This document shows positions 32-64,000 of a stretch of DNA of 64,000 bases, piece by piece (the stretch's first letter is position 1; the number at the start of each line of letters is the position of its first letter). The stretch is from Nanobdellota archaeon (GTDB taxonomy: Archaea > Nanobdellota > Nanobdellia > Woesearchaeales > JACPBV01), in the NCBI GenBank assembly GCA_018813685.1, contig JAHJAV010000018.1:9576-73575 (forward strand). The letters run 5' to 3'. Made by a program: the position numbers and the translations under genes. Under the pieces are notes generated by a model. It was given only the letters and a program-made list of their open reading frames with translations, was not told the origin of the DNA and searched no databases.

Positions 32-364
32 TTAATCACCTTCTGAACCAGTTATTACAAATATCGTCTCAAATTCAAAATAATAAATAAATATTATCTT
101 TTTTGAGCCGTCTTTTCTGACATAAGCTTCGTATTTTTTCTTGCCTACTTTTTCGGTCTTATATGCGCATTTTAAGGCTTCTCTCAAATCTATAAAGTCC
201 CAACCCCATTTTTTCATATATTTCAGGGCAAAATGCTTGCTCACCTCTATTTTGCATACCTCTAAGTTAAACTTCATAGTATTTTCACTATATTTTGTGT
301 TGTTATTCATCATATTTAAATATTTGTATTGTGGAGTATATAATAGATAAACCAAAAACAACAT
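32..364 (-). CDS. hypothetical small basic protein (110 aa)
   Basis: ORF at the window edge with no recognisable motif. Possible toxin-like small protein, but no partner is visible. Confidence 0.3.
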   Translation of the reverse strand: MLFLVYLLYTPQYKYLNMMNNNTKYSENTMKFNLEVCKIEVSKHFALKYMKKWGWDFIDLREALKCAYKTEKVGKKKYEAYVRKDGSKKIIFIYYFEFETIFVITGSEGD

Positions 365-410
365 TAACTTTTTATATTAGAGAAATAAATTCCTAACAGA
401 GGGGGTAAAA

Positions 411-1247
411 ATAGATTTAATTAAGGATTTAGTTGAACTATATAGAAAAACAGCTACAGAGATTCATGAAGATATCCTCAATATCCTAAAACAAGCAGAA
501 GAAATAGAAGAAGTATCAGCAAAAAACAACATAAAAGATCTTATAAAAAACGCAGAACTAGCAAAACAACTATCTAAACCAATCTGCCAGGATACTGGAA
601 CTCCGATTTTTTATATTCAACATGATAAAACATACTCTCAAAAAGAATTAAAAAAACAAATAATAGAAGCGACAAAGCTAGCAACAGAAAAAATACCATT
701 AAGGCCTAATGCAGTTGACATTAAAACAGATAAAAATACAGGTAACAACACTGGAAACTTTTTCCCAATAATCTATTTCGAAGAAATTAACAAAGGATTA
801 ATAATAGACCTAATGTTAAAAGGCGGTGGCTCAGAAAATGTTGGAATAACATACAGCCTTCCAAATAAAGATCTAGATGCTGGCAGGAATTTGGAGGGTG
901 TAAGGAAATGTGTTTTGGATGCTGTGTTTAAGGCGCAGGGAAAGGCGTGTCCCCCCTATGTTATTGGTGCTGCTATTGGCGGTTCTAAAGATGTTGTTGC
1001 TTGTTTGTCAAAGAAACAATTGTTAAGGAAACTAAATGATGTAAATGAGGATTCAGAATTGGATAGATTTGAGAAAGAGTTGAAAGAAGACCTAAATAAA
1101 TTAGGCATAGGGCCATTAGGATTAGGGGGAAAAACAACATGTTTAGCTGTAAAAATAGCAGAGTCATCAAGGCATCCAGCTTCTTATTTTGCAGATATAT
1201 CGTTCTGCTGCTGGGCATGCAGAAGGGGGCAATTAAAATATGACTGA
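411..1247 (+). CDS. class I fumarate hydratase (Fe-S hydro-lyase) alpha subunit
   Basis: ICQDTGTPIFYIQ motif and full-length alpha-subunit homology are in frame from about 399. There is no ATG/GTG/TTG between the in-frame stop at 378 and 813. ATA at 411 is preceded by an SD-like gaggggg (398-404) and would give the N-terminus MDLIKDLVELYRK. Confidence 0.7.
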   Translation: MDLIKDLVELYRKTATEIHEDILNILKQAEEIEEVSAKNNIKDLIKNAELAKQLSKPICQDTGTPIFYIQHDKTYSQKELKKQIIEATKLATEKIPLRPNAVDIKTDKNTGNNTGNFFPIIYFEEINKGLIIDLMLKGGGSENVGITYSLPNKDLDAGRNLEGVRKCVLDAVFKAQGKACPPYVIGAAIGGSKDVVACLSKKQLLRKLNDVNEDSELDRFEKELKEDLNKLGIGPLGLGGKTTCLAVKIAESSRHPASYFADISFCCWACRRGQLKYD

Positions 1248-1819: not shown

Positions 1820-3226
1820 ATGGATGAAAACAAAGTAGAATCGATGGATTACCATTCTGGAAAGAAATATGAAAAAAATCCAGTAATGAATAAGCCCGGC
1901 AAAACAGCTGTTCTTGTTACAAAGGGCTGCGAAACACAGGGGGAATTAAGCTTAGCATACACCCCATTTGTTGGAAAAATTGTAGAAGATATACATAGAA
2001 ATCCAGAACAACTGCCTAAATTAACTTCTTACAGCAACAAAGGGGCTGTTATAAGCGATGGAACTGCTATTCTTGGCTTTGGTGATCTAGGGCCGAAAGC
2101 AGCAACACCAGTAATGGAAGGCAAATCAGTCTTGTTTAAGGTTTTTGGAGATGTTGACATGGATTCTATTGTCATAAATGAAAAAGATCCAAAGAAGATC
2201 ATAGAATTCGTAATGAAAATGGAACCTAACTACGCCGGCATAAACCTAGAAGATATCTCAGCCCCAAGATGTTTTGAAATAGAAGAAGAATTACAGAAAA
2301 GGTATAAAGGGTTTATCTTCCATGATGACCAGCATGGTACTGCCACAATTACATTAGGCGGATTGTTAAATGCCTTAGAGCTAGTTAACCTAAAAAAAGA
2401 AGATGCTAAAGTAGTTATTTGCGGCGCAGGAGCTGCTGCTATAGCCTCAGCAAAACTATACAAAAAAGACGGAATAAAAAAAATAATAATGCTTGACAGA
2501 AATGGGGCAATCTTTAAAGGAAGAAACTTTCCAACAAACAAATACAAAGAGCAATTTGCAATAGGCTTAGAAGAATATGGGCTAAATCCAGATAAAGATG
2601 GAAAGATAACCTTAAAAGAAGCTATAAAAGAAGCAAATGTTTTCTTAGGCTTATCAGCAGCTAACTTACTAACGGGAGAAATGGTAGAAAGCATGGCAAA
2701 AGATCCAATAATAATTGCAATGGCCAATCCAGTTCCTGAAATTCTTCCTGATGCTGCTTATGAGCATGGTGCTAAGATTGTAGCAACCGGGAGGAGTGAT
2801 TTTCCTAACCAAATAAATAATGTTTTGGGGTTTCCAGGCATCTTTCGCGGAGCCTTAGATGCTTTGATTTCTAAGACGACTGATGATATCAAGCTGGCGG
2901 CAGCTTATGCCTTAAAGGATCTGGCGCATAAGCCTGTTCCTGAAGAAGTTAAGGATAAATATCCTAAGGATAAGGCAAATGGTGTTTTTGAAGGAGAAGA
3001 CCCAGTAAAGCCAGAATACATTGTTCCTTTGGCATTGGATCCAAGAGTTGCTGTTGAGGTTGCTGCTGCTGTTTACAAGACAGCGTTTGAAAAAGGGATT
3101 GCAACAGCAAAACTTCCAGAAGGATTTAATTCTGCTGAAGAATATATTCCTGCTTACAAGAAGGAAGTTATGGAGAGAATAAAGGTGCAGGATAAGCTTA
3201 GGGAAGCTGTTAGAAATAGTTTTTAG
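1820..3226 (+). CDS. NAD(P)-dependent malic enzyme
   Basis: FHDDQHGTATITLGGLLNALELV and ICGAGAAAIA Rossmann motifs. SD-like aggggggat upstream. Confidence 0.85.
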   Translation: MDENKVESMDYHSGKKYEKNPVMNKPGKTAVLVTKGCETQGELSLAYTPFVGKIVEDIHRNPEQLPKLTSYSNKGAVISDGTAILGFGDLGPKAATPVMEGKSVLFKVFGDVDMDSIVINEKDPKKIIEFVMKMEPNYAGINLEDISAPRCFEIEEELQKRYKGFIFHDDQHGTATITLGGLLNALELVNLKKEDAKVVICGAGAAAIASAKLYKKDGIKKIIMLDRNGAIFKGRNFPTNKYKEQFAIGLEEYGLNPDKDGKITLKEAIKEANVFLGLSAANLLTGEMVESMAKDPIIIAMANPVPEILPDAAYEHGAKIVATGRSDFPNQINNVLGFPGIFRGALDALISKTTDDIKLAAAYALKDLAHKPVPEEVKDKYPKDKANGVFEGEDPVKPEYIVPLALDPRVAVEVAAAVYKTAFEKGIATAKLPEGFNSAEEYIPAYKKEVMERIKVQDKLREAVRNSF

Positions 3227-3424
3227 AATATGCATAGCATCTTCAAAATTCTTGACGGAAGCGGCAAAGGAGCTGCGTTCCCGTAGGGAGCACAGAAAAA
3301 GCCTTGCTTTTTCCTAGTTGCGCTCGGCTTTGCCTCGGCAAACCAACCCCTCGCGACGCTCGTCGATAATATTTGATTTATGGAATTTTGACCCTAGGAT
3401 GCTATGCACATACAGTTTTTAGAA
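3217..3424. repeat. GC-rich structured element A with 13-bp terminal inverted repeats and 11-bp flanking direct repeats
   Basis: DR agtttttagaa at 3217-3227 and 3414-3424; the first copy contains the malic enzyme stop codon. IR tatgcatagcatc (3228-3240) pairs with gatgctatgcaca (3398-3410). The GC-rich core has conserved hairpins shared with elements B and C. Confidence 0.55.
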
Positions 3425-4446: not shown

Positions 4447-5871
4447 ATGGCTGAATGTATTCTTAAAGCAAATGATGGCAACGGAATGGGCCATCTAAGA
4501 AGGGCATTAAACTTACTATTAGCAGCTCCAGAATTAGCGCAGTCTGTTGAATTAATCGCCCATCAAGGTTTTCAAAAATTTCTTGAAGAGTTTGATAGAA
4601 AATTTAATACTAGCTTGGTTCCTGATTGCGGATGGAGATTAAACTTAGATACTAGTTTGCCTTATCTAAAATGGAATTCACCTTATGCAAGAGAATTTGA
4701 TCAAAAAGCTGCATTAGATATGTATTATCTTTCTTTTATTGATGCGTTGGGGAGAAATCCAAGAGCAAAGCTTGTCTATGTTGATGATCATAATGATCCT
4801 GCAGCTATGCTTACAGGTAGAGCAGGAAAGGCGCTAGGTTTAACAAGACACCCAATAAAAGAATTAGTTCCTGATGCTGCACTAGCTTTTCTAATGCAGA
4901 CACAAGGATATTTTGATGGCTGCAAGGATCAAATGCCAAAAACAAGAAAAGAATGTTTTGACATTGCAGATTATCTCCTTTTTCCCAGCCACCCAGAATT
5001 CATAGGGGCAGCTGCTGATTTTGACTTTTCAAATGGCAATCCAGAAAAGGTCATCTCATTGGGATTTCTTGTAGACCAAGAAGTTATGGGGCTGTTTAAA
5101 CAAACAGATAAAAGAAGAGTAAAGAATACGCTGTATGGGGCTCTTGAAGTAGATAAGGCTAACCGAAAATTGATCTATTGCTCTTTTGGCGCAGGTGAAG
5201 CAGCTGATTCCATATTACGTGCTATATTCACAGCAGCTCAAAACCAAGATTATGTTTTTGTAATTGCAGATCCAAGAGGTTTATTAGCTAAAAAAGCTCA
5301 AGAGATGTATGATGTTAAACTTGCTTTTACATGCAGCAGAGGAACTAGACTTCCAACAGCAGCAAGAAAAATTAGCTTAGGAAATGGAAGATATGTATAT
5401 ATAGTCAATCCAGGAACTTCTGAATTACATCTTAAATACCTTGCAGCTTCAGATGTATTATTGCAAAGCAATGGCTCAAATACAACCTATGAGGCAATTG
5501 CAGCTGGAAAACCAACAATTAATGTTCATTTGCCAAAACCAGGGTTTGAACAAGGGTTTAAAGCATTAGCTATGAGTGCAAATGGTTTGGGTGAGGTTTT
5601 GATGCTGCCTGGTGAAGCAGATATGGCTGATAGATTTAGAGAATTGGTCGGGCCACAACCTGAATTTAGATATGAACAATTAAGTGCTCAACATCTTGAG
5701 GCTGCAATTGGAAGAATTTTAGATACTCCTAATTTTTATGGTGATAATCTTGCTGCTGCACAAAGGTTTATTACCTCCCCACAAACAGCTTCTCAAATAT
5801 TAGCTAATATGATGTTAAGAAAAAATCCTCAAGAGATTGTTGATACCTTAGGCCTGCCGCGTTATGAATAA
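4447..5871 (+). CDS. PseG/SpsG-like GT-B fold protein (putative glycosyltransferase/nucleotide-sugar hydrolase) with an extra domain
   Basis: N-terminal GNGMGHLRRALNLL resembles the GxGHxMR motif of PseG/GT28-type enzymes. C-terminal TYEAIAAGKPTINVHLP resembles the GT-B acceptor motif. Ala-rich and longer than PseG. Confidence 0.35.
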   Translation: MAECILKANDGNGMGHLRRALNLLLAAPELAQSVELIAHQGFQKFLEEFDRKFNTSLVPDCGWRLNLDTSLPYLKWNSPYAREFDQKAALDMYYLSFIDALGRNPRAKLVYVDDHNDPAAMLTGRAGKALGLTRHPIKELVPDAALAFLMQTQGYFDGCKDQMPKTRKECFDIADYLLFPSHPEFIGAAADFDFSNGNPEKVISLGFLVDQEVMGLFKQTDKRRVKNTLYGALEVDKANRKLIYCSFGAGEAADSILRAIFTAAQNQDYVFVIADPRGLLAKKAQEMYDVKLAFTCSRGTRLPTAARKISLGNGRYVYIVNPGTSELHLKYLAASDVLLQSNGSNTTYEAIAAGKPTINVHLPKPGFEQGFKALAMSANGLGEVLMLPGEADMADRFRELVGPQPEFRYEQLSAQHLEAAIGRILDTPNFYGDNLAAAQRFITSPQTASQILANMMLRKNPQEIVDTLGLPRYE

Positions 5872-6636: not shown

Positions 6637-7665
6637 TCACTCCCTAAACTCATCTGGAAAGAAAAATCTCCTTACAGCTTCATCATCACTAGCGATAACA
6701 TCCTGTTTTGCCCCAAGCCTTCTAATCTTCCTTTCATGAATCCAATCTATCCTATCTGGATCAAAATAGCCAAGCCTATTGTCATGGGTTGTCGCAAGAA
6801 CAGTATAACCCATCTTCTTTAGCTTGCTTATCAGATCAAAGACTTCTAGACTCAATGGGGGATCAAGTCCTGTTGTCGGCTCATCTAATATTATTAATTC
6901 TGGAAAATCTGCCAATACCCTTGCAACTGCCACTCTTTTTAACATACCTCCGCTTAACTGAGCAACATCCTTATCCCTATCTTTCCATGGATCTAGGCCA
7001 ACTAACTCCATACAATAATCTACCCTGGCCTGAATAATTATGTTTTCAAGCAGATTAACTTCACCTAGTATGATGCTGCTTCTGGATTGTTGAGCACGAA
7101 TCCCAAAATTTTCATTAAGGGCTTTCAATTCCTCCCCACACCTATATTCAATAGATCTAGTTGAAAGATATTCCCTAACACTAGCGCAAACATCAGATTT
7201 ATAAAAAACATCATAGAAATGCTCTCTCAATGGAAAAGCAATATTCTCTGCAACACTCATACTTCCAAAAAGGCCACCTTTCTGAGGGCAGTAACCTAAT
7301 CTGCTATATATTTCAGTATAACGTTTTCTTCTATCTGATTTTGAAATACCATGCAAAGCTTTGCCAAATACATATACCTCCCCGTCTACACAATTATCAG
7401 AACCAAATATTACTGGATTACCTATTCCGAATACTGTCCTTAAAAACACGCTCTTTCCTTTTCCACTCCCGCCAAAAAGAAAAACAAACTCCCCCCTATT
7501 CAAATTAAAATCAGCTCCTTCTAAAATACATTCCCCAGCAAAAGACCTGGTTAAACCATGACATTCAACAATGGCATCATCACCATCAGGCATGGTCTTG
7601 TAATCATTAGAAACAAGCCCCTGAATGCCTGCCCTGTATGCATTAACAGCACCTAAATCAATCAT
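6637..7665 (-). CDS. orphan ABC-type ATPase with N- and C-terminal extensions
   Basis: Walker A GGSGKGKS, ABC signature LSGGMLKR, Walker B ILDEPT. No adjacent permease gene. Confidence 0.65.
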   Translation of the reverse strand: MIDLGAVNAYRAGIQGLVSNDYKTMPDGDDAIVECHGLTRSFAGECILEGADFNLNRGEFVFLFGGSGKGKSVFLRTVFGIGNPVIFGSDNCVDGEVYVFGKALHGISKSDRRKRYTEIYSRLGYCPQKGGLFGSMSVAENIAFPLREHFYDVFYKSDVCASVREYLSTRSIEYRCGEELKALNENFGIRAQQSRSSIILGEVNLLENIIIQARVDYCMELVGLDPWKDRDKDVAQLSGGMLKRVAVARVLADFPELIILDEPTTGLDPPLSLEVFDLISKLKKMGYTVLATTHDNRLGYFDPDRIDWIHERKIRRLGAKQDVIASDDEAVRRFFFPDEFRE

Positions 7666-8848: not shown

Positions 8849-9970
8849 TTACAGTTTTTTAACTACAGCATCCCCCATTTCTGAAGTAGTGTTTTTACCG
8901 CCAAGGTCTTTTGTTCTTACTTTTCCTTCTTTCAGGACTGATTCTATGGCTTTTACTATAATTTCTGCTGATTTGGGTTGTCCGATCTCATCTAACATCA
9001 TTGCTCCTGCCCAGATTGTTGCTAATGGATCAGCTATATTCATGCCTTTGTATTTTGGAGCAGAGCCGTGGATAGGCTCAAACATTGAAATTCCTTCTGG
9101 ATTAATGTTTCCGCCTGGTGCTAAGCCTAAGCCGCCTTGTATCATTGCACCTAAGTCTGTTATAATGTCTCCGAACATGTTTGGTGTAATGACTACCTTA
9201 AACCATTCGGGGTTTTTTACAAACCACATTGTGATTGCATCTACAAACATGAATTCGTGCTTTATTTTTGGGTATTGTTTTGCTATTATTTCTACATTCT
9301 CTCTCCAGAATCCGTAGATATCTGAAAGGACATTTGCTTTGTCTACAAAGTAAGCTGTTTCAACTTTTTCTTTTTTAGCTAATTCAAAGCCGTATTTTAT
9401 TACGCGTTGAGCTCCTTGTTTGCTCATTACTCCAATCTGGTAAGCGATCTCATCTGTGTTTTCTATGTCTAGGTTGAATTTTACTTTGTAAAGATCCCTA
9501 ATTACTTCTAATTCCTGCTTGCTTTTTCCTATTTTTGCCCTGTTTCCTATTCCGACATAGAAATCTTCAGTGTTCTCCCTTATAACTGTGAAGTTTATGT
9601 CCTTTGGGCCTTTGCCTTTTAGAGGGCAGTCTACTCCTCCTAATAATTTGATTGGCCTTAAGTTAACGTACTGGTCAAAATAGAATCTTGTCTTTAGCAA
9701 TATTCCTTTTTCTAATATTCCCGGCTTGCATCTTGGATCGCCTAGAGCGCCTAAGTAGATTGCCTTGCAGGTTTGTTTTATCTCTTTTAGAGTTTCTTCT
9801 GTGATAAGTTCGCCTGTTTTTAGGTATTTGTCTGCTCCGTTGTTGTAAGTTACCCAATCTATCTTGAAGTTGTTCTTGTCTGCTACTGCTTCTATTACTT
9901 TAACTCCTTCTGCTATGATTTCTGGGCCTATGCCATCACCTGGCATTTTTGCGATTTTGTAGGTTTTCAT
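8849..9970 (-). CDS. leuB: 3-isopropylmalate dehydrogenase
   Basis: [15 protein letters not shown]-terminus; isocitrate/isopropylmalate dehydrogenase family. Confidence 0.85.
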
Positions 9971-12645: not shown

Positions 12646-12742
12646 AGTATATTTGAGTTATTGGAAAGTATATAAAAGTATGTTGTACCTAAAGGGTACA
12701 ACTATCGAAAGATTTATATCTATGCCCATATTTTTAGGCACC

Positions 12743-13474
12743 ATGGAAGAACATGTATTAATCAAGGCTGGCCTGACGGCAAATGAATCAAGGATATATC
12801 TTTTGCTGTTGAAGAGCCAAGAGGCGATTGCTTCGGATATTGCAAAGCAGACAGAGATATCAAGACCGCATGTGTATGATTCTATAAACAAACTGATTGA
12901 GAAAGGATTGGTGTCTTATGTGATAAAAGACCATAAGAGATATTTTAAGGCAGCTAATCCAAATGAACTGATCAATTATCTTGAAGAAGAGAAGAGCAGG
13001 ATAGATGATAAGAAGAAGGAGATTACGGGATTTATGCCTAAATTGCTTAAGATGCATAAGGAAATGAAAGCAAAGTCTTCTGTAGAAGTTTATGAAGGAA
13101 AAGAAGGGCTAAAGACTGTACTTATGGATATTATAAATAATTGTAAGAGCTTTACTGCTTTTGGCGCAACGCATAAGTTTGAAGGTGTTTTGCCTGTTTT
13201 TTCTAAACTCTTTGTGAAAATAAGAGAAGAGAAAAAGATTAAGGCAGATATTCTTGCTGTAGAAGGAGAGAATCCAATAAAGACAAAGATGAATAACTAT
13301 AGGTGGATACCTAAAGAGTATTCATTGCCATCTTCTACTATAATGTATGGTGATAAGACTGCTATTTTGCTTTGGAGCGGTGAGCCATTTGGGATTATAA
13401 TAAAAAGCAAAGAGATAACTAATTCTTACAATAGTTATTTTAAATTACTTTGGAAGATTGGGAAGAAGAAATAA
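12743..13474 (+). CDS. TrmB-family transcriptional regulator
   Basis: N-terminal wHTH (LTANESRIYLLLLK...ISRPHVYDSINKLIEKGLV). The start was chosen at the internal ATG (12743) to avoid overlap with the convergent Cys-rich ORF. Confidence 0.55.
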   Translation: MEEHVLIKAGLTANESRIYLLLLKSQEAIASDIAKQTEISRPHVYDSINKLIEKGLVSYVIKDHKRYFKAANPNELINYLEEEKSRIDDKKKEITGFMPKLLKMHKEMKAKSSVEVYEGKEGLKTVLMDIINNCKSFTAFGATHKFEGVLPVFSKLFVKIREEKKIKADILAVEGENPIKTKMNNYRWIPKEYSLPSSTIMYGDKTAILLWSGEPFGIIIKSKEITNSYNSYFKLLWKIGKKK

Positions 13475-17003: not shown

Positions 17004-18578
17004 TTAGTATTGTGCATGAATCCTGTTTCCTTTTTTATTTCTTTGGAAATTCAATGCTTTGTTCATGCCTTTTATCAATGCTATTGCTGATGCCATCATG
17101 ATATCTTCATTAACTGCTTCTGCCTTGAATATATTTCCTTTTTTGTCCTGGATCTTTATTGATACGTCTGCCAATGCATCTGTGCCGCCAGTGATCGCTT
17201 TAAGACCGTATTCTTTTAATGTGATTGAAGGGTCTATCATTGTGCGTATGGCATGACTAACAGCATCAACAGGACCGACTCCTTTACCAGTCCCTGTTTT
17301 CTTTTTTCCGTCGATGATCAAAGTTACTGCTGCTTCTGGCTGCATCTTGTTTCCTGTTGACACTTTTATCTCATCAAGTTTTATTATCTCCTCATCTTTT
17401 GAAAGTTCTCCTGCAATGTCTGTAGCTATTGCTATGATATCTTCCCGCATGACAACCTTTTGTTTATCAGCAAGCTCTTTTACTTTGATTATTACTTTTT
17501 CAACCTGTTCTTTAGTAAGATCATAACCCATCTCTTTTAAGGCGTTTTCTACTGCATGCTTTCCAGAGTGTTTTCCAATAACAAATGTTGTTCCTATCCA
17601 CCCTATCTCTTCTGGCTTCATTATCTCATAGGTCAACTTGTTCATCAACATACCATGCTGGTGTATGCCTGCTTCGTGGGCAAATGCATTAGATCCTACA
17701 ATTGCCTTGTTTCTCTGAACTGCAATTCCTGTCAATGATGAAACTAATTGTGATGTTTTGAAAATCTCTTTTGTGTTTATTCCGGTTGTTATATCTTTGA
17801 AAAAGTCCTTTCTTGTCTTTAAGTTCATCACTACTTCTTCTAAGCTGCAATTGCCTGCTCTTTCGCCGATGCCGTTTATAGTGCACTCTACCTGAGTTGC
17901 ACCGTTATTTACTGCTTCTAATGAGTTTGCTACAGCCAGGCCTAAGTCATTGTGGCAATGTATGCTTATGACTACTTTGTTTGATTTTATTATGTTATTT
18001 AGCTTTTCGAAAACATATTTTATTCTCTTTCCGAATTCTTCTGGCTCTGCATAGCCTACTGTGTCTGGGATGTTGATTGTGGTTGCTCCTGCTTCGATCA
18101 CTGCTTTGATTATATCACACATGTAGTCTAGGTCTGTTCTTGCAGAGTCTTCTGGGCTGAATTCAATGTCTTTGCACAATGATCTTGCGTGTTTTACTGC
18201 GTCTACTGCCATCTGCATGACTTCTTCTTTTGATTTTCTTAGCTTGTTGTCCATATGCACTTGTGAAGTTGCAATAAAGGTGTGAATTCTAGGTTTTTTT
18301 GAATATTTTACAGCTTCCCATGCCCTGTCAATATCTTCCTTTCTTGTTCTGGCTAATCCGCAGATTATTGGGCCTTTTATTTCTTTAGCGATTAATTTAA
18401 CAGATTCAAAATCACCTTCTGAGCTTATAGGGAAACCTGCTTCAATTACGTCAACTCCTAATTTAGCTAGCTGTTTAGCTACTATAATCTTCTCCTGCAT
18501 TGTCAAGGATGCTCCCGGAGACTGCTCGCCATCCCTTAATGTTGTGTCGAAAATGATTATTTTCTTCATGATGTTCAC
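17004..18578 (-). CDS. leuA: 2-isopropylmalate synthase (or citramalate synthase)
   Basis: IFDTTLRDGEQSPGASL plus HCHNDLGLAVAN, with a C-terminal regulatory domain. Confidence 0.85.
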   Translation of the reverse strand: MNIMKKIIIFDTTLRDGEQSPGASLTMQEKIIVAKQLAKLGVDVIEAGFPISSEGDFESVKLIAKEIKGPIICGLARTRKEDIDRAWEAVKYSKKPRIHTFIATSQVHMDNKLRKSKEEVMQMAVDAVKHARSLCKDIEFSPEDSARTDLDYMCDIIKAVIEAGATTINIPDTVGYAEPEEFGKRIKYVFEKLNNIIKSNKVVISIHCHNDLGLAVANSLEAVNNGATQVECTINGIGERAGNCSLEEVVMNLKTRKDFFKDITTGINTKEIFKTSQLVSSLTGIAVQRNKAIVGSNAFAHEAGIHQHGMLMNKLTYEIMKPEEIGWIGTTFVIGKHSGKHAVENALKEMGYDLTKEQVEKVIIKVKELADKQKVVMREDIIAIATDIAGELSKDEEIIKLDEIKVSTGNKMQPEAAVTLIIDGKKKTGTGKGVGPVDAVSHAIRTMIDPSITLKEYGLKAITGGTDALADVSIKIQDKKGNIFKAEAVNEDIMMASAIALIKGMNKALNFQRNKKGNRIHAQY

Positions 18579-18840
18579 CTTTTGTGTTTAGTTTTATAAA
18601 TCTTTCCTCTGCTTATTTTTATAGCATTATAAAAAGTAAAATTTTATCCGCTGGCCCTTAATTCCTGTTTAAAGAACTAGGGCAATCATAACACCAGAAC
18701 CAATAGAAGTAGAACTAACAAGAATGTAAATGATTTGAACGAGTTAGTTCGTTTCATAATAAGTTAGAATATGGATTTTATATTTAAAGGTTTGTTTTTT
18801 GTTTAGAGTTATAGTAAAAAATCCAAAATTAGTTTATATG

Positions 18841-19013
18841 AAAAACCCAACCACAACATAGGCTTAATGATAGTTTATTTGAAAAAATCCAGCCATCCAT
18901 GACGGCCTACGGACAAAACTTCGTTTTGCCCTACTCGCCACCCCGTAGGGGGCATCCCCCGGCTCGTCTGCGTCATGGCTGGATTTTTTCTCGCCATGTT
19001 GTTGGGTTTTTTA
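18841..19013. repeat. GC-rich structured element B inside a long nested inverted repeat
   Basis: Outer IR aaaaacccaaccacaacat / atgttgttgggttttt; inner IR aaaaaatccagccat(ccat)gacgg / cgtcatggctggatttttt. Core has a caaaac-UUCG-gttttg tetraloop hairpin and a cccc-gta-gggg hairpin. Its 5' and 3' modules match the ends of element A. Confidence 0.55.
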
Positions 19014-19112
19014 AAAATAGAAATGTCGGAAAAGCTTTGCTTTTCTGAGCATTTTAGTTTTTGCTTTGCAAAAACCAAAAGGTTTAAATAGTACCTAACC
19101 TTATCTAGGGTT

Positions 19113-20631: not shown

Positions 20632-20970
20632 ATGATTGATACAATGGAACAAACACTATTTGTAAAGTTCTTAGGAGATTCGCCTAAGATAAGAGTTTTG
20701 GACGTGCTTATAACAGGAAGAGAGCTAGATTACAGCATATCTGATATAGCCCAGCAGGCAGGAATAGGGAGGGCTACTTTCTACAGGATGATGGATGAGC
20801 TGTTAAAGAATAAGGTAATTATGCTTACGAGGAAATTTGGGAATATACAGCTTTACAAGCTAAACATAGAGAATGAATATGTAAAGGCACTTGTAAAGAT
20901 GTATGACAATATTGCAAAGGCAGCTTCTGAGAAAGAGATTAAACGGCAGAAAATGGTTTTGACGGTTTAA
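20632..20970 (+). CDS. winged-helix DNA-binding protein (paralog of 47364-47705)
   Basis: Shares GRELDYSISDIA..AGIGR.T..R....L....VI...R..GN..LY.LN.EN..VK with the second copy. Confidence 0.5.
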   Translation: MIDTMEQTLFVKFLGDSPKIRVLDVLITGRELDYSISDIAQQAGIGRATFYRMMDELLKNKVIMLTRKFGNIQLYKLNIENEYVKALVKMYDNIAKAASEKEIKRQKMVLTV

Positions 20971-20979
20971 ACATAGAAA

Positions 20980-21333
20980 TTATTTTTCTTCCTGTTCCAG
21001 TTCTGATACGATTTTCTTCAGCTTTGGCTTTAAGCTAGGGATTTCGGTTTTCATAGCTGACCAGACAAGGTTGTAGTCTATGCCAAAGTATGCATGAATC
21101 AATCTGTCCCTCATTCCAGCCATTGATTTCCATTGTATTTCTTTGTAATTATCCTTTATTTTAGAGGGTATATGCTTTGCGGCTTCTCCGATTATCTCAA
21201 ATTTTCTGATAACTGCACTGGATGTCTTTTCATCTGCTTTGAGCTCTTCAAGAGCCATACTGCCTACAAACTCTTCAATTGATTCCATGGCAGCGATAAT
21301 ATCCTTAATGAAAAGGTTATAATCTCTTTTCAT
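20980..21333 (-). CDS. hepT: HEPN-domain toxin HepT (DUF86)
   Basis: RDRLIHAYFGIDYNLVW contains the Rx4HxY HEPN motif. Confidence 0.75.
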   Translation of the reverse strand: MKRDYNLFIKDIIAAMESIEEFVGSMALEELKADEKTSSAVIRKFEIIGEAAKHIPSKIKDNYKEIQWKSMAGMRDRLIHAYFGIDYNLVWSAMKTEIPSLKPKLKKIVSELEQEEK

Positions 21334-21632
21334 ACCTTAACCACCTCTTTAAGGATATTATTTTTCAATTCAGGCCTTATGCCCCCTTCAGAAACAACAT
21401 CTACCTTAATCTTCAGCTTTTCTTCAAGATAATTTCCAAGCCCGACAAAATCAAATAGAGTTGCTTTTGGATTGAATTTTACGAGAATGTCCACATCGCT
21501 TGACTTTTTCTGCTGCCCCCTTGCATAAGAGCCGAATATGCCAAGTTCCCTGACTTTATACTTTTTTTTCAGTTCGCCTTTGCTTGAAGCAAGAAGCGCC
21601 TGGATCTGCTTTAATCTTTTCATTTTATCCAT
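21330..21632 (-). CDS. mntA: minimal nucleotidyltransferase antitoxin MntA
   Basis: GIFGSYARGQQKKSSDVDILV (GSx9-13DxD). 4-bp overlap with hepT. Confidence 0.8.
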   Translation of the reverse strand: MDKMKRLKQIQALLASSKGELKKKYKVRELGIFGSYARGQQKKSSDVDILVKFNPKATLFDFVGLGNYLEEKLKIKVDVVSEGGIRPELKNNILKEVVKV

Positions 21633-31191: not shown

Positions 31192-31383
31192 ATGGGAAGA
31201 ATAAAACTACAGCTCATAAAGAGAACAACCAAGAGAATTGTAAGGGAGCACGGCTCTGAAATAAAGGAAGATTTTAACGAGAACAAGAAAATAGTAGAGA
31301 AATATACTGATGTTTCTAATAAGAAGCTAAGAAATGCGATTTCTGGTTATATTACTAAGCTAGCAAAAATAAAGGAAGAGTAA
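31192..31383 (+). CDS. rps17e: 30S ribosomal protein S17e
   Basis: MGRIKLQLIKRTTKRIV...KKLRNAISGYITKL. Start at the internal ATG of the longer ORF. Confidence 0.8.
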   Translation: MGRIKLQLIKRTTKRIVREHGSEIKEDFNENKKIVEKYTDVSNKKLRNAISGYITKLAKIKEE

Positions 31384-31529
31384 AGGTTATTCGGCTAAGG
31401 GCCCAACAGAAAAAACTCCTGTTTTTTCCTATCTCCGCTCGGCTAACGCCTCTGGAGATGCCCGATAGACTCCTGCTTCCAGTTTGTGCTGTTTTGAGAA
31501 ACAGCACGAACGATAAAGGAAGAGTAAAG
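31369..31529. repeat. GC-rich structured element C (127 bp) flanked by a perfect 17-bp direct repeat duplicating the rps17e 3' end
   Basis: DR ataaaggaagagtaaag at 31369-31385 (contains the rps17e stop TAA) and at 31513-31529. The core shares about 50 nt with element A, with compensatory changes in two hairpins, and carries an extra 9-bp stem gtgctgttt/aaacagcac. Confidence 0.6.
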
Positions 31530-31561
31530 TTTATAAGGATTTTAGAATTCTATTGTTTTAT

Positions 31562-31633
31562 GGTGGCCATAGTTTAGTGGTAGAATACAGGACTGTGGAT
31601 CCTGTGGCCCGAGTTCGATTCTCGGTGGCTACC
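31562..31633 (+). tRNA. tRNA-His (anticodon GUG) with encoded G-1
   Basis: G-1 then acceptor gtggcca/tggctac; anticodon stem cagga/tcctg with loop ctGTGga; T-arm ccgag-ttcgatt-ctcgg; discriminator C. Confidence 0.8.
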
Positions 31634-31637
31634 CTTT

Positions 31638-36545: not shown

Positions 36546-36675
36546 AGAATGAGATATTATCAGCTGTTATTTAAATTATCTTCTTTTTCAGTATCACGAA
36601 AAAAGCTAACGCTTTTTCCTAATGTAGTAAATTATTGTCCCAATACCTCATGCATAGCCCGAGGTATTTCATAAT

Positions 36676-39600
36676 TTATACATCATCTATAAGATCCTGC
36701 GCTGTTTTGTCTTCTATTTTCTGTTCTTGTTCTGTTTTGTCTTCAATCTGCTTTTCTTCTTTGGCTTCTATTTTCTGTTCTTGTTCTGTTTTGTCTTCAA
36801 TCTGCTTTTCTTCTTTGTATTCTATTTCCTGCTCTTTTTCTGAATTGTCTTCTATCTCTTTCTCTGGCTCTGAATTGTCTTCAATCTCTTTTGGCTCTTC
36901 ATAGGAGATTTCATTAGCTGGTCCTGATTCTTCTTTAGTAGCCTCTTTTCCATTAACTTCCTTTGGCTCTTCTCCTAAGATTTTTGCTGCTGCAACTACT
37001 TTATCCCCTGATTCAAGCTTCATCAATGTCATGCCCTGTGTTGCTCTGCCTATTATTGAAATTCCTTTTGCAGGAGTCCTTATGGTAATTCCGTTCTTGC
37101 TTATGAACATGACTTCGTCTTCTTCGGTTATTGACTTAACTGAAACTACATTACCGTTTCTTTCTGAGCAGATTATGTTCTTGACACCTACCCCCCCTCT
37201 GCGAGTAAGCCTATATTCAGAAACCGATGTTCTTTTTCCAAAGCCGTTTTCAGTTATGGTCAATAATGCCCTTGTATCATCTGCAACTACCATGCCTATA
37301 ACATAATCATTATCTCTTAATGTAGCCCCTCTTACGCCTTTTGCAGACCTCCCTGTTGACCTTACATCTGTTTCTTTGAATCTTACTGCTGAGCCGTTTT
37401 TTGTAGCTATGATTATCTCTTTTGTACAATCTGTCTTTACAACTCTTATCAATTCATCATTATCTTCAAGAGTGATTGCAATAATGCCTCCTTTTCTAGG
37501 GTTAGAGTATGCTGAAAGCTCTGTCTTTTTTACTGTTCCATTTTTAGTGGCCATTATCAAAAATTCATTTTCTTTAAATTCTGATATTGGAGTAAATGCA
37601 GAGATTTTTTCATCCTGGCTTAACTGAAGTAAGTTAACTACTGATTTTCCTAAAGCCTGTCTTGAGCCTTCTGGTATGTTATAAACTTTTAACCAATGAA
37701 CACGTCCCTTATTTGTAAAGAACAATATGTAAGAATGGGTGTCTGCAATAAAGATGTCTTCTACAAAGTCCTGCTCTTTTGTTCCGGCAGCAATTATTCC
37801 TTTTCCGCCTCTTCTCTGCTGCTTATAGGTGCTTAATGGCTGTCTTTTTACATAGCCTGAATGAGTTATTGTGATGACTGTTTTTTCTCTTTTGATCAAA
37901 TCTTCCATCTCAAATGAATTTAATTCACCACCTGTAATCTCTGTCCTTCTTTCATCTCCGTATTGTTCTTTTAATTCAATGAGCTCTTTTTTGATTATGT
38001 CAAGGATCTTTTTTTCAGAAGCCAATATTGAGGTAAGCTCACCTATTAATTTTATTAAGTCAGAATGCTCTGTCTTTATCTTTTCCTGCTCAAGTGCTGC
38101 AAGCCTCTGCAGTTTCATATCCAAGATAGCCAATGACTGCTTTTCTGTTATGCTTAAGCTTGTCTGTAATACCTGCCTTGCCTGCTCAACAGATCTGCTT
38201 TCTTTGATAAGTTTTATAGTTGTATCTATGTCTTTAAGTGCAATCAATAATCCCTCTAATATATGTGCCCTGTCTTTTGCTTTGTTTAGGTCAAATTCTG
38301 TTCTTTTTCTTACAACTTCTTTCCTATGCTCGACAAAAAAATAGATAAGCTGTTTTATGCCTAATGTCTTTGGCTCATTGTTGACTAAGGCAACTGCCAT
38401 TATTCCAAATGTTTCCTGTAATCTTGTATGTTTGTATAATTGATTTATGACTATGTTTGAGTTTGAGTCTTTTTTTAATTCTATAACAATGCTCATTCCC
38501 GTTCTATCTGATTCATCCCTTATATCACTTATACCCCTTATCTTATCATCATTTACTAATCCCGCTATCTGTTTGATAAGTTCTGATTTATTTACCATGT
38601 AAGGGATCTCTGTGATTATGATGCGGTTTTTTTCTGGCTCAATCTCTGCTCTGCCCCTTACAATTACCTTTCCTCTGCCTGTTTTGTAAGCATGAACTAT
38701 TCCTTCTCTTCCGCAGATTATTCCGCCTGTTGGGAAGTCAGGACCTTTTACATGGTTCATTATTTCATCGACTTCTAAATCAGGATTTTCTATCAAAGCA
38801 ATTGTTCCATTGACCACTTCAGTCATGTTATGGGGCGGTATGTTTGTTGCCATGCCGACTGCGATGCCTGAAGAGCCGTTTATCAGAAGATTAGGAACTT
38901 TTGAAGGAAGAACAACTGGCTCTTCTAATGAGCCATCGAAGTTTGGCATAAATTGAACTGTGTTTTTGTCTATGTCCTGCAAAAGTTCTTCTGAGAGTTT
39001 TTTTAGACGAGCTTCTGTATATCGCATAGCTGCTGGACTATCGCCATCTACCGAGTTATGAACAAAGATTCCGGCAGCTAAAGCAAAATTGTGTGTGCCC
39101 TTGATTGTCAAATCATAAACATCTTCTAATTTTGGAAGAAGTTCTATTCTTAGAATTTTATGGTTGTAGGCTTTTGCTTGTTCAACCATGTCTGAGAAAT
39201 TATCAAAGTATTGTAATGCTGTGTTTATTTTTGGAAAGCAATTATTGGTTCTTTCTTTTCCATAGATTTCAGGTGTTATTTCTTCATATTTGTGAGTGAT
39301 TGAATTGACAAAACACAATATCTTGCTTTTCATTACTTTTTCTTTGTAAGAAGGATCCTGCCATTTTTTCTTCAGGGAAACGGCTGCTTTTTCTGCCAGT
39401 TCATTCATTAAGTTGGAGTTTTCTTTTAGTCTCTGCTTATTATTTTCTTTTATTGCTTTAATGATTTTTTCACGGAATTCAAGATCTTGCCATTGTGAAA
39501 CCGCTTTTTTGCTGTGAGCTTCTTTTATTGATGGATCTTCCCATAACTTTTTTGCCATCTTACTGAAATGGTTTTTAGGGAATTTGGACCTATATCCACT

Positions 39601-40968
39601 ATCTTTCCAGAGTTTTTTTGAATTTTCACTTCTCTCTTTCTTGTATTTTTTGTTTTCCCACCTTTCTTTTGATTTCTTGGAGATAAGGCCTCTGCGCCCT
39701 GGTCTTGCCCAGATTTCTTTAGATTCTTCTGAAGTGAATTTCCTTAATGAAGGATCATTTTTCTCCCATCTTTTTTTCATTTCTGCTGATTTTAGTTTGC
39801 TCATCTTTTGATGATATTCTTTATTACCCCATAGCTCTTTCAATCTCCTGCTTTTTTCTTCTCTTAATTCTGGATGTTTTTTTGAGAATTCAATATTGAT
39901 TTCACTCAATCTTTTACTCGTATGTTCCCTATAATCCTTATTCTTCCAATTCTTTTTGTTTCTTTCAGAAAGTTTTTTAGAAGCTCTTTCTTTGTTATCT
40001 TTATTAGACCAGAATCTTTTTCTTCCTTCTGCTATTTTTCTGCGATATTCTGGATCTTTGTGTAATTCTGAAGCATGTCCTGCATGCAATGACCAATGAT
40101 CTTTCCATTTTATTCTTTTTATGTTGTCTGGGTTGTTGTTTAATTTGTTAAAATCTATATGGTGTCTTATTCTTCCTGCATTCTTTGCATATATTTCATT
40201 TTTAATATTCCAATTATCTGCTAGTTCATGTATTGGTGCCCATTTGTTTGTGTTTGATTGATGGAGCATTGGATAACCAACAAGTGCTGGCTTTATGTTA
40301 TCTTTTTTAGTAGATGGCCTAATGTTAAGGGGCATCAAGGAATCTTCTGGTTTTAGGTATTGTGCTTGTTTATACTCGCCATTTCTTAGCATGAACCTAT
40401 GGTCTAAAGTGCACTTTATTCCTTCATTATTGTCTAAAACAACCTTTAGGATTTTTTGGCTTTTCTTTGTGAGTCTAGGGTTTTTTATTTCAGCTATTTC
40501 TATGCTTCCCTCTTTATTAATAGTGTAAGTATAGTTCTTTTTGCCTTTTTTATGCTCTTTTATTAACTCTTCAAAGCTTAGGTTTCTACCATCTGTTAAG
40601 GCTATTTTAGTATCTTTTGTGAAACAACCAAAATTACCCTGACCATCAATTAGAGTATATCTTAAAGAGAATGGCTGGACCATCCTAGCTAATGAATCAT
40701 AAACAGCAACATCGCCGTGAGGGTGATATTTTCCTAAAACTTCTCCTACAATCCTGGCGCTTTTTTTGAATGGCTTGTTATGATACATACCCATATCATT
40801 CATTGCGAAAAGAATCCTTCTGTGAACTGGCTTTAAGCCGTCTCTTACATCTGGCAAGGCTCTTCCAACTATGACAGACATAGCATAATCTACATAAGAC
40901 TGCTTCATCTCTTCTTCTATCTCTCTGGGCAGTATCTGCTCTCCTTTTGATTCGATTTTTTCAGTCAT
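36676..40968 (-). CDS. gyrA: DNA gyrase subunit A interrupted by a 524-aa intein, with an acidic EK-repeat C-terminal tail
   Basis: N-terminal GyrA motifs up to QGNFG. The extein resumes with SVDGDSPAAMRYTEARL and the GyrA beta-pinwheel follows. Confidence 0.9.
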   Translation of the reverse strand: MTEKIESKGEQILPREIEEEMKQSYVDYAMSVIVGRALPDVRDGLKPVHRRILFAMNDMGMYHNKPFKKSARIVGEVLGKYHPHGDVAVYDSLARMVQPFSLRYTLIDGQGNFGCFTKDTKIALTDGRNLSFEELIKEHKKGKKNYTYTINKEGSIEIAEIKNPRLTKKSQKILKVVLDNNEGIKCTLDHRFMLRNGEYKQAQYLKPEDSLMPLNIRPSTKKDNIKPALVGYPMLHQSNTNKWAPIHELADNWNIKNEIYAKNAGRIRHHIDFNKLNNNPDNIKRIKWKDHWSLHAGHASELHKDPEYRRKIAEGRKRFWSNKDNKERASKKLSERNKKNWKNKDYREHTSKRLSEINIEFSKKHPELREEKSRRLKELWGNKEYHQKMSKLKSAEMKKRWEKNDPSLRKFTSEESKEIWARPGRRGLISKKSKERWENKKYKKERSENSKKLWKDSGYRSKFPKNHFSKMAKKLWEDPSIKEAHSKKAVSQWQDLEFREKIIKAIKENNKQRLKENSNLMNELAEKAAVSLKKKWQDPSYKEKVMKSKILCFVNSITHKYEEITPEIYGKERTNNCFPKINTALQYFDNFSDMVEQAKAYNHKILRIELLPKLEDVYDLTIKGTHNFALAAGIFVHNSVDGDSPAAMRYTEARLKKLSEELLQDIDKNTVQFMPNFDGSLEEPVVLPSKVPNLLINGSSGIAVGMATNIPPHNMTEVVNGTIALIENPDLEVDEIMNHVKGPDFPTGGIICGREGIVHAYKTGRGKVIVRGRAEIEPEKNRIIITEIPYMVNKSELIKQIAGLVNDDKIRGISDIRDESDRTGMSIVIELKKDSNSNIVINQLYKHTRLQETFGIMAVALVNNEPKTLGIKQLIYFFVEHRKEVVRKRTEFDLNKAKDRAHILEGLLIALKDIDTTIKLIKESRSVEQARQVLQTSLSITEKQSLAILDMKLQRLAALEQEKIKTEHSDLIKLIGELTSILASEKKILDIIKKELIELKEQYGDERRTEITGGELNSFEMEDLIKREKTVITITHSGYVKRQPLSTYKQQRRGGKGIIAAGTKEQDFVEDIFIADTHSYILFFTNKGRVHWLKVYNIPEGSRQALGKSVVNLLQLSQDEKISAFTPISEFKENEFLIMATKNGTVKKTELSAYSNPRKGGIIAITLEDNDELIRVVKTDCTKEIIIATKNGSAVRFKETDVRSTGRSAKGVRGATLRDNDYVIGMVVADDTRALLTITENGFGKRTSVSEYRLTRRGGVGVKNIICSERNGNVVSVKSITEEDEVMFISKNGITIRTPAKGISIIGRATQGMTLMKLESGDKVVAAAKILGEEPKEVNGKEATKEESGPANEISYEEPKEIEDNSEPEKEIEDNSEKEQEIEYKEEKQIEDKTEQEQKIEAKEEKQIEDKTEQEQKIEDKTAQDLIDDV
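36712..36830. repeat. tandem ~57-bp nucleotide repeat (x2) encoding the EK-rich GyrA tail
   Basis: ctattttctgttcttgttctgttttgtcttcaatctgcttttcttctttg occurs twice in tandem. Confidence 0.6.
39055..40626 (-). mobile_element. intein in gyrA with HNH homing endonuclease and NUMOD3-like Lys-rich repeats
   Basis: Starts with Cys after GNFG and ends VHN before Ser (CAT AAC TCG at 39060-39052). Internal RIRHHIDFNKLNNNPDNIKRIKWKDHWSLH is an HNH-like motif. There are about 8 tandem copies of a ~22-aa K/S/W repeat. Confidence 0.8.
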
Positions 40969-44477: not shown

Positions 44478-44619
44478 GTTAATGCTAAAGAATAGTGGAA
44501 AATATAAAAAGGTTTCTATTGAAAGAGAAAGACAAAAGTAAATTATGATTTGTTTGTCTGTCAAAAACCTTAGGGTTTTTGAGCATGCTCAGAAACCTTT
44601 GATTTCTGACATTTCTATA

Positions 44620-47363: not shown

Positions 47364-47705
47364 TTAGTGAACCATTTCTATTTTTTTCTTTTTGTTTAAT
47401 GGTTCAATAACTAATGAGTCAAATAATCCAATCATTTTTTTTACAAAAGGATTTTCTTGATTTAACTGATATAATTTAGCATTTCCTATCTCTCTTGTTG
47501 GATTTATGACCTTAAGCTCTATCAGATCATTCCATATTCTAAATAAAGTAGTTCTTCCTATTCCGGCACCTTCTGCTATGTCCGATATAGAATAATCTAA
47601 TTCTCTTCCTTCTATTAAAAATTCTAAAACTTTTATCTTTGGCGCGTTTCCCATTGCTTTTGTAAATATTGTTTGTTCCATAGATGTATAGAATAATTGA
47701 CCCAT
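47364..47705 (-). CDS. winged-helix DNA-binding protein (paralog of 20632-20970)
   Basis: GRELDYSISDIAEGAGIGRTTLFRIWNDL..VINPTREIGNAKLYQLNQENPFVK. Confidence 0.5.
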   Translation of the reverse strand: MGQLFYTSMEQTIFTKAMGNAPKIKVLEFLIEGRELDYSISDIAEGAGIGRTTLFRIWNDLIELKVINPTREIGNAKLYQLNQENPFVKKMIGLFDSLVIEPLNKKKKIEMVH

Positions 47706-63971: not shown

Positions 63972-64000
63972 TCTCCCATAATTCCATAAATGAATCCATT

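Follow-up and report, generated by a model that had tools for sequence, protein, structure and literature searches.

The window analysed in this study is a 64,000-nucleotide stretch of contig JAHJAV010000018.1, assigned to a Nanobdellota archaeon. The host is a DPANN archaeon, and the GC content of the window is 36%. The window lies within the 143-kb metagenome contig ERZ27247128 in ENA, and its NCBI counterpart is the metagenome-assembled genome (MAG) GCA_018816725.1, labelled Nanoarchaeota archaeon. Adjacent genes are mostly separated by less than 90 nt. Here we describe element C, a 127-bp non-coding hairpin insert between the gene of ribosomal protein S17e and tRNA-His, and two related inserts of the same genome, designated as A and D.

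Results

A Duplicated Gene End Flanks Element C

The S17e gene (31192-31383, plus strand, 63 amino acids, Pfam PF00833 Ribosomal_S17e) ends with the stop codon TAA at 31381-31383. The 17-mer ATAAAGGAAGAGTAAAG covers this gene end at 31369-31385 and is found again, without a mismatch, at 31513-31529; these are the only two exact copies in the window, both on the plus strand. Element C is the GC-rich segment between them (31386-31512, plus strand, 127 bp). A first-pass annotation, made from the letters of the window, had reported a perfect 17-bp duplication on the S17e stop codon around a 127-bp GC-rich segment, and both its extent and its positions were exact. It had translated the first copy as KIKEE plus TAA. 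The stop codon stands, and the copy itself reads ATA AAG GAA GAG TAA followed by AG, which corresponds to the S17e codons IKEE, the stop and AG. When one mismatch was allowed, the repeat extended to 22 nt, ATAAAGGAAGAGTAAAG[G/T]TTAT, with copy 1 reaching imperfectly to 31390. This 22-nt form has ATAAA at its start and TTTAT at its end. In a third-order Markov simulation, 0.03 direct repeats of at least 17 nt within 600 bp were expected per window.

Element C has no inverted repeat at its termini. Its RNA fold was more stable on the plus strand (z = -5.1) than on the minus strand (z = -2.9). A double-hairpin core was detected at 31406-31458 on the plus strand by a covariance model (38.9 bits, E 2.8e-8). 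The first hairpin of the core, H1, is AGAAAAAAC-UCCU-GUUUUUUC(C), and the second, H2, is AUCUCC..GCUC-GGC-UAAC-GCC-UC..GGAGAU. Folding placed a further hairpin, GTTTGTGCTGTTT / AAACAGCACGAAC, at the 3' end of the element (31482-31511, plus strand).

Downstream of the element, repeat copy 2 is directly followed by TTTATAAGG, which lies about 30 nt ahead of the tRNA. The block (G/A)(T/A)AAAG-TTTATAAG is kept 5' of tRNA-His in four lineages. From known archaeal promoter architecture, this block is probably the transcription factor B recognition element (BRE) and TATA box of tRNA-His; in the window the putative promoter, GTAAAG TTTATAAG, occupies 31524-31537 on the plus strand, ~30 nt before the tRNA. 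The final GTAAAG of repeat copy 2 would thus hold the BRE position and abut the TATA box. The tRNA-His gene (GTG anticodon, 31563-31634, plus strand, 72 nt) starts 33 nt past repeat copy 2.

The length of tRNA-His differs among the relatives that were compared. It is 72 nt in the window and in the relative L003, and 87 nt in L004-6 as called by ARAGORN (1184-1270 in L004). The same extra stretch is present in the sequence of L120 at ~225-311. The 87-nt form of L004-6 and L120 is consistent with an intron. An internal GACUCCUGCUUCC of element C could pair with GGAAGAGU of the repeat in the manner of a self-targeting guide, and this idea was set aside as A and D have no parallel to it.

Element A Has the Same Geometry at the Malic Enzyme Gene

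Element A (3229-3413, plus strand, 185 bp) lies between the genes of malic enzyme and a metallo-β-lactamase (MBL)-fold protein. Repeat copy 1, AGTTTTTAGAA, is located at 3218-3228 on the plus strand and holds the malic-enzyme stop TAG (3224-3226). Copy 2 is at 3414-3424 on the same strand, 3 nt ahead of the putative TATA box of the MBL-fold gene, TTATAAAAAC. An 11-bp repeat including this stop codon had been noted in the first reading of the window, and it was confirmed with the first copy shifted by one position from 3217-3227. The inverted termini of element A were likewise found, not as 13 bp but as an imperfect pair of 14 nt with 93% complementarity (3228-3241 / 3398-3411), directly inside the repeat. 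The double-hairpin core of element A is at 3292-3343 on the plus strand (47.9 bits, E 1.2e-10 with the covariance model). Since 77 direct 11-mer repeats within 600 bp were observed in the window and about 29 were expected from the third-order Markov simulation, the 11-bp repeat of element A is not significant alone, and its weight comes from the empty sites of the relatives.

At the native target of element A, the segment 3415-3436 is a near-palindrome, GTTTTTAGAA-AG-TTATAAAAAC, that links the stop-codon region to the TATA box. Compared with the syntenic contig L116, the window carries two extra genes between the MBL gene and the KARI gene, at 4447-5871 and 6637-7665. Their products are a 474-amino acid protein that matched nothing in Pfam and an ABC ATPase.

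Relatives Carry the Loci without the Inserts

The first reading had proposed comparing the S17e/tRNA-His and malic enzyme/MBL loci with those of related genomes, and at both loci relatives were found with no element and with a single repeat copy. In L003, whose S17e is 95% identical, the locus reads GAAGAGTAG, 18 nt, GTAAAGTTTATAAGGG and then tRNA-His. In L004-6 (S17e 78% identical), it reads GAAGATTAGTAGTAAAGTTTATAAGG and then tRNA-His. In both, the S17e stop is followed after 3-21 nt by GTAAAGTTTATAAGG and tRNA-His, and neither the 127-bp segment nor a second repeat copy is present. Element A was not found in three relatives, L113, L115 and L116 (malic enzyme 82, 78 and 74% identical), in which 37-40 nt separate the malic-enzyme stop from the MBL start codon. 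The stretch ATAAAAACAAGTTCTT is common to L113 and the window, and the spacer of the window shrinks to 35 nt once element A and one of its repeat copies are taken out. Because these loci are empty and hold one repeat copy, A and C are evidently true insertions with duplication of a target that includes the stop codon. The proposal that the target and stop codon were duplicated 3' of an intact gene was thereby borne out, and D, described below, is a third case.

Both spacers reconstruct to 35-45 nt without the inserts, and 0-5 nt then separate the stop codon from the BRE/TATA that serves the following gene. With such a gap, both genes work only if the duplicated block spans the junction. The stop-codon geometry of C and A would thus be mostly a matter of survivorship and is no proof of targeting by itself. 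The word "targeted" in the first-pass annotation is therefore not required by the data, though some site preference may exist, given other inserts in the S17e/tRNA-His spacer. L003 has 18 nt there (367-390) with AGTAG on the flanks, and L120 has ~105 nt of AT-rich hairpins (340-460, minus strand) joined exactly at the same point, GTAAAG/TTTATAAG.

The loci recur across separately deposited ENA, Logan, JGI and NCBI MAG records. Element C was identical in a Logan contig, and element A was present in a JGI contig that was 99.5% identical over 3.8 kb. When the window was compared with L003 around element C, S17e had no marked local jump in divergence beside the element. Mosaic-divergence comparisons of the window with L003 around C and of L104 with the window around A were uninformative.

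A Third Copy Ends the PRC-Domain Gene Twice

Extension of the contig by 7.5 kb to the right revealed copy D (15298-15392 of L121, the same contig), about 1.4 kb right of window position 64000, with its core on the minus strand (50.5 bits). The copy is also present in L122 (GCA_018816725.1). On the plus strand, the PRC-domain gene ends with GTT GTT GCC GAA GAG GAC ATA ATC TGA. After the TGA, there are 29 nt made up of H1 and TAGTTGCGC reversed, and then GTT GTT GCT GAG GAA GAT ATC ATC TAA. Both blocks translate to VVAEEDII*. They are identical at 21/27 nt, and the six mismatches are all synonymous in type. The coding copy of D sits within the H2 hairpin of the reversed core.

Since the differences are synonymous only, the two blocks appear to be two orthologous gene ends and not a drifted non-coding duplicate, for which differences would be expected at every codon position. 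We suggest that a 27-bp duplication arose in one lineage and that a diverged relative then received the insertion by homologous recombination, the crossover on the right being probably close to the insert. The pattern of D suggests that the insertion spread between strains by homologous recombination. Translational bypass or splicing of the 56 nt was also considered; nothing supports either, and the second copy is in frame +2.

Elements A, C and D Share a Double-Hairpin Core

Elements A and C are alike over a core of ~50 nt only, and their remaining parts are unrelated. The core consists of H1 (GGAAAAnn-loop-nnUUUUCC), a UAG linker and H2, in which a variable stem of 5-6 bp surrounds a conserved GCUC-GGC-nnn-GCC-UCG loop. 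Its GC content is 47-62%, against 36% for the window. Further copies were searched for by pattern scans of GTDB genomes and JGI metagenomes, and most hits in both looked like chance. A covariance model, R1, was built from four of the recovered contexts. The core was found in about ten distinct contexts on DPANN contigs, with R1 scores of 41-81 bits. These contexts comprise one Woesearchaeota MAG, one MAG labelled Methanosarcinales and otherwise AT-rich metagenome contigs. One of the two hit contigs of the "Methanosarcinales" MAG was nearly identical to that of the Woesearchaeota MAG. In the ~81 kb of the present genome that were covered, there are three core-bearing copies (A, C and D) plus element B.

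The pairing of the core was examined across 11 distinct sequences. Of all cells, 98% were paired, and both-sided changes were seen at 6 pairs. The covariation score was reached by 0/500 shuffles, with an alignment that was itself fitted to the model. Three variants of the H2 stem, GUUGC/GCAAC, GACGC/GCGUC and AUCUCC/GGAGAU, can nevertheless be read directly from the raw sequences, and pairing on the plus strand includes some G-U pairs. The elements are not alike outside the core, where most of them carry long closing stems that are unrelated in sequence and give rod-like folds (z from -3.9 to -7.2).

Movement of these elements was apparent from the same element lying in different flanks within one metagenome, in L021 versus L038 and in L046 versus L081. 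The L046 and L081 elements have inverted termini. The core itself also comes and goes. A homologue of the L021/L038 element in L119 reads GTTCCCC/ACCCCC exactly where L021 and L038 have the 50-nt core, and a second core in L010 is missing from its relative L034. Judging by these alignments, the core is present or absent inside otherwise homologous larger elements. Exact searches and local alignment around the other family members detected no flanking repeats above shuffled controls.

These results indicate that A, C and D belong to a family of small non-coding hairpin elements that occurs in several DPANN lineages and is recognisable by its internal core. [quoted passage not shown] Rfam gave no meaningful match, either for the whole window at the gathering score or at E <= 10 for A, B, C, the region upstream of leuA and a 350-nt element of L034. 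Signal recognition particle RNA, 5S rRNA, RNase P and small ribozymes were accordingly discarded as identities, as no Rfam model matched. C/D and H/ACA guide RNAs and a bulge-helix-bulge intron were discarded as well, since no defining boxes or bulges were visible by eye. A small open reading frame through the core (MFFLVALGYASAT-like) was rejected because a stop interrupts the frame in element C and the stems covary.

Two longer members differ in their setting. The L034 element (12736-13086) is a multi-hairpin element of ~350 nt with the core near its 5' end, a fold z of -5.9 and a TATA-like box upstream. A long member in L092 lies just 3' of the 23S rRNA 3' end, where a 5S rRNA gene might be expected, and had no Rfam match.

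Element B and Neighbouring Features

Element B (18839-19016, plus strand) is a rod-like nested inverted repeat with a fold z of -7.2. It is kin to elements of L022, L024 and L119, and the canonical H2 hairpin is missing. A flanking duplication was looked for at element B and none was found. Gene order 5' of leuA differs in L119 and L120, so a clean empty-site comparison was not available for B.

A hairpin, GUUAUGAUUGCCCUAAUUCUU...AAGAAUUAAGGGCCAGCG, lies at ~18650-18700 on the minus strand, 5' of leuA (17004-18578). It is kept on the leuA strand in the window, L119 and L120, and had no Rfam match at E <= 10. This conserved hairpin possibly serves the leucine/ILV operon as a leader or in regulation. 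L119 carries another GC-rich two-hairpin insert of ~105 nt (9850-9955, minus strand) between leuA and the conserved hairpin, and this insert is absent in the window and L120. Intergenic hairpins of the H1 type, with an A-run and a T-run, are present at 36596-36670, 19026-19090 and 44560-44610, for example ACGAAAAAAGCTAACGCTTTTTCCTAAT. These may be half-modules in decay, or simply the terminator hairpins usual in this genome.

Other features of the window include a GyrA gene (36676-40968, minus strand) with an intein (Pfam Intein_splicing inside DNA_topoisoIV), a HepT/MNT toxin-antitoxin pair (20980-21632, minus strand) and two winged-helix paralogues of 112 amino acids each with 55% identity (20632-20970, plus strand; 47364-47705, minus strand).

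Discussion

In this study, we found that element C and its relatives A and D each stand beside a duplicated gene end and share a core inside the element and not at its ends. The duplications in this genome are 11 bp (A), 17-22 bp (C) and 27 nt (D), and the three inserted segments have no common termini. Since the duplication lengths vary and the ends are unrelated, an end-recognising enzyme with a fixed stagger, such as a DDE transposase or a casposase, does not fit. Three different repeat sequences likewise speak against a site-specific recombinase with one att core, and the duplications themselves exclude HUH/IS200-type insertion, as that makes none. As far as sequence can decide, these three mechanisms appear to be ruled out. 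The candidates that are left would be break repair or template switching, target-primed reverse transcription and an unknown system that recognises the core, and we favour the first group.

In our view, element C is probably a mobile element, small, non-coding and rich in hairpins, that inserted recently and was copied in at a break or by template switching, with its geometry set by survivorship and its spread due to recombination. Element C would have landed in the few nt separating the S17e stop from the BRE/TATA promoter of tRNA-His. Copy 1 would then retain the S17e C-terminus and stop, and copy 2 the BRE beside the TATA box, leaving both genes intact. The copy-in may have occurred at a staggered or replicative break, for example by template switching or break repair, or through an unknown structure-recognising system. 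Once in place, the insertion could move between strains via homologous recombination of its flanks.

Several observations weigh against this account of element C. The three duplications come from one genome only, and older copies elsewhere have no flanking repeat. No donor copy for template switching was seen, and the survey for a partner gene covered only ~81 kb of the genome. Conservation of the H2 loop points to some protein or RNA that recognises the core, which fits an enzyme-driven mechanism better. About three quarters of the copies are oriented as the upstream gene, and a random process at the DNA level predicts no such bias. The duplicated block of each of the three events ends 0-2 nt past the stop codon, and survivorship based on a promoter cannot explain D, for which the next gene is ~190 nt away. 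Real targeting of stop-codon or terminator regions is possible, and the unrelated inserts in the same spacer of L003 and L120 could mark a true hot spot. A bolder proposal, which we regard as doubtful though deserving consideration, is that the family represents an unrecognised class of archaeal mobile element. Such a class would consist of a structure-recognised double hairpin of ~50 nt, alone or in rod-like carriers, that prefers junctions between a stop codon and the next promoter, makes variable duplications of 11-27 bp, is possibly RNA-mediated or coupled to replication, has no conserved ends and serves the ultra-compact genomes of DPANN archaea as a terminator or insulator that can be moved about.

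Other explanations of the duplicated gene ends were weighed. A, C and D may be MITEs that arose by deletion from different insertion sequences. Each would be mobilised in trans by a separate DDE transposase from elsewhere in the genome and leave its own characteristic duplication, with the core as a passenger or nested mini-element. The 14-nt inverted termini of A directly inside its repeat, the inverted termini of L046 and L081, the unrelated non-core parts of A and C (as for different elements) and the ability of the core to nest in other elements are all in keeping with this. DDE transposases usually make duplications of 2-13 bp, and those of 17-27 bp exceed that range; in addition, C has no terminal inverted repeat, neither the 40 window proteins nor the genes called in L121 include a transposase, and what is conserved across lineages is internal and not terminal. 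We regard MITEs as unlikely. Roughly the same low probability applies to an RNA-mediated origin. In that reading, a reverse transcriptase recognises the core of small structured RNAs, and the elements are their retro-copies, inserted at nicks by target priming with variable duplications. Variable duplication length is a hallmark of target-primed reverse transcription, as in the insertion of long and short interspersed nuclear elements (LINEs and SINEs), and the duplications here do vary. Several structural features agree with it: the conserved internal structure covaries and includes some G-U pairs on the plus strand, closing stems differ in sequence between copies with pairing kept, orientation is biased with the upstream gene, and the plus strand of C folds better. 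Against it, no reverse transcriptase was found in the 81 kb seen, and A, C and D have neither a 3' end nor a tail in common. The outer stems, which are long, pair perfectly by Watson-Crick rules with no G-U pair, which looks like palindromy at the DNA level, and the T5-6 tract of H1 would stop archaeal transcription within the element. To our knowledge, no such RNA-mediated system exists in prokaryotes, which also counts against it.

Capture of a foreign allele would need no staggered cut. A gene 3' end with its element would be acquired from a related strain, with homologous recombination inside the gene at one junction and illegitimate joining at the second, and the resident gene end would become the second copy. 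The two gene ends of D, both VVAEEDII* with six synonymous-type differences, look like donor and resident alleles, and comparable gene-end duplicates occur with mobile elements of fungal mitochondria. The copies at C and A are perfect and short (17 and 11 bp), so that two independent illegitimate joints are less parsimonious than target duplication. S17e displays no marked divergence jump by the element relative to L003, and an original insertion in the donor is still required; we give this explanation a small chance. Integration by a casposase (Cas1) or a tyrosine or serine recombinase, site-specific for tRNA loci or the 3' ends of genes and with the repeats as target or att core, is very unlikely. 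This was the mechanism put forward in the first-pass annotation, on the grounds of long direct repeats that rebuild the gene end and a nearby tRNA gene, and a standalone Cas4-like nuclease just past the window, the sole addition among the called genes of the 7.5-kb extension, is a weak and indirect point in its favour. The three repeats differ in sequence and length, which does not suit a recombinase that rebuilds gene ends, and with variable lengths and no shared termini a Cas1-like or staggered-cut integrase fails as well; C has no inverted termini, and the element is too small for coding. As for the suggested check for Cas1-, transposase- or integrase-like genes, no Cas1, transposase, integrase, reverse transcriptase or Y1_Tnp was found among the 40 window proteins scanned against Pfam. 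Integrases use the 3' part of a tRNA, and since C inserted on the promoter side of tRNA-His, the idea of a classical tRNA hot spot does not apply. Chance AT-rich words or a chimeric metagenome assembly can be practically dismissed. Repeats of 11 nt within 600 bp are indeed common, so the caveat of chance words, raised at the outset, holds for the repeat of A taken alone and is overcome there by the empty sites. For a 17-mer it fails at 0.03 expected per window. Both repeats exactly bound DNA that is missing in relatives, and the structures recur in separately deposited records.

Comparison with known systems places the family near several of them. The mobile elements of Allomyces are defined by a core of two hairpins. 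The closest analogues are mitochondrial, namely the GC clusters of yeast, the double-hairpin elements of Allomyces and the "byp" elements, by analogy and not by homology. In fungal mitochondria, GC clusters and hairpin elements are GC-rich modules in an AT-rich compact genome, sporadic and flanked by repeats (PMC4478555). Their modules merge and shuffle, transfer is by flanking homology and the mechanism is unknown, and the yeast clusters have flanking repeats of 2-3 nt, AG or ACT (PMC4478555). The DPANN family is similarly GC-rich with two hairpins, sporadic among relatives and set in an AT-rich compact genome. It differs in being archaeal, with no sequence relationship, in its repeats of 11-27 bp and in a core that has a conserved internal-loop sequence and usually lies inside a larger rod-like element.

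Like MITEs, which are shorter than ~600 bp, the elements are short (127 bp for C, 185 bp for A), non-coding, intergenic, multi-copy and structured, with target duplications and, in A, inverted termini. MITE families have conserved terminal inverted repeats and a duplication length fixed by the partner transposase, whereas the termini of the DPANN family are not conserved, C has none and the duplication length is not fixed. A partner insertion sequence with the same ends was not found in the 40 window proteins or the L121 gene calls (~81 kb of genome). Casposons make long target duplications (14-15 bp), often at the 3' ends of genes or tRNAs, and a long duplication at a gene end in an archaeon is reminiscent of them. 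Casposons are several to ~20 kb long, encode Cas1 and a family B DNA polymerase and have inverted termini and a fixed duplication; in contrast, element C is 127 bp with no inverted termini, the window has no Cas1, and duplication lengths of 11, 17-22 and 27 bp were seen. The family differs from tyrosine and serine recombinase elements in its three different flanking repeats and in the position of C 5' of tRNA-His. No integrase gene was found in the element or in the window.

Repetitive extragenic palindromes (REPs), bacterial interspersed mosaic elements (BIMEs) and the IS200/IS605-derived palindrome-associated transposable elements (PATEs) make no target duplication, have a fixed tetranucleotide neighbour and depend on a Y1 (HUH) transposase or a REP-associated tyrosine transposase. 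The family resembles them as extragenic hairpin modules, and the known ones are structure-recognised, often lie just past stop codons and are terminator-like; it departs from them in the long duplications at A, C and D, with no Y1_Tnp protein in the window. With SINE-like retroposons it shares variable-length duplications, a conserved internal RNA-like structure and non-conserved flanks, but it has no A-rich or shared 3' tail and the window has no reverse transcriptase. We know of no precedent for SINE-like retroposons in archaea.

The elements may also affect the genes beside them. H1 is an A-run/T-run hairpin that is alike on both strands and carries T5-6, and oligo-T is the archaeal termination signal. 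H1-like hairpins are the usual kind of intergenic hairpin in the window, and H1 lies 12-85 nt past a stop codon in A, C and D. An effect as a terminator or insulator is plausible, and the observations agree just as well with an element that is neutral or purely selfish. The conservation of the H2 loop would fit a partner that binds it.

The genomes of DPANN archaea are very small and tightly packed, and their mobile elements are poorly known. The insertion at the element C locus is clean and dated, and relatives provide its empty sites. Long, variable duplications together with the lack of shared termini fit no characterised prokaryotic transposition chemistry, so the family would provide a handle on the mechanism of insertion. 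It is also a counterpart, in prokaryotes, of the mobile GC clusters and double hairpins known from fungal mitochondria, the mechanism of which is unresolved there too (PMC4478555). Finally, the locus illustrates how compaction, with a stop codon abutting the next promoter, would filter the insertions that can survive, which may help in reading gene-end duplications elsewhere.

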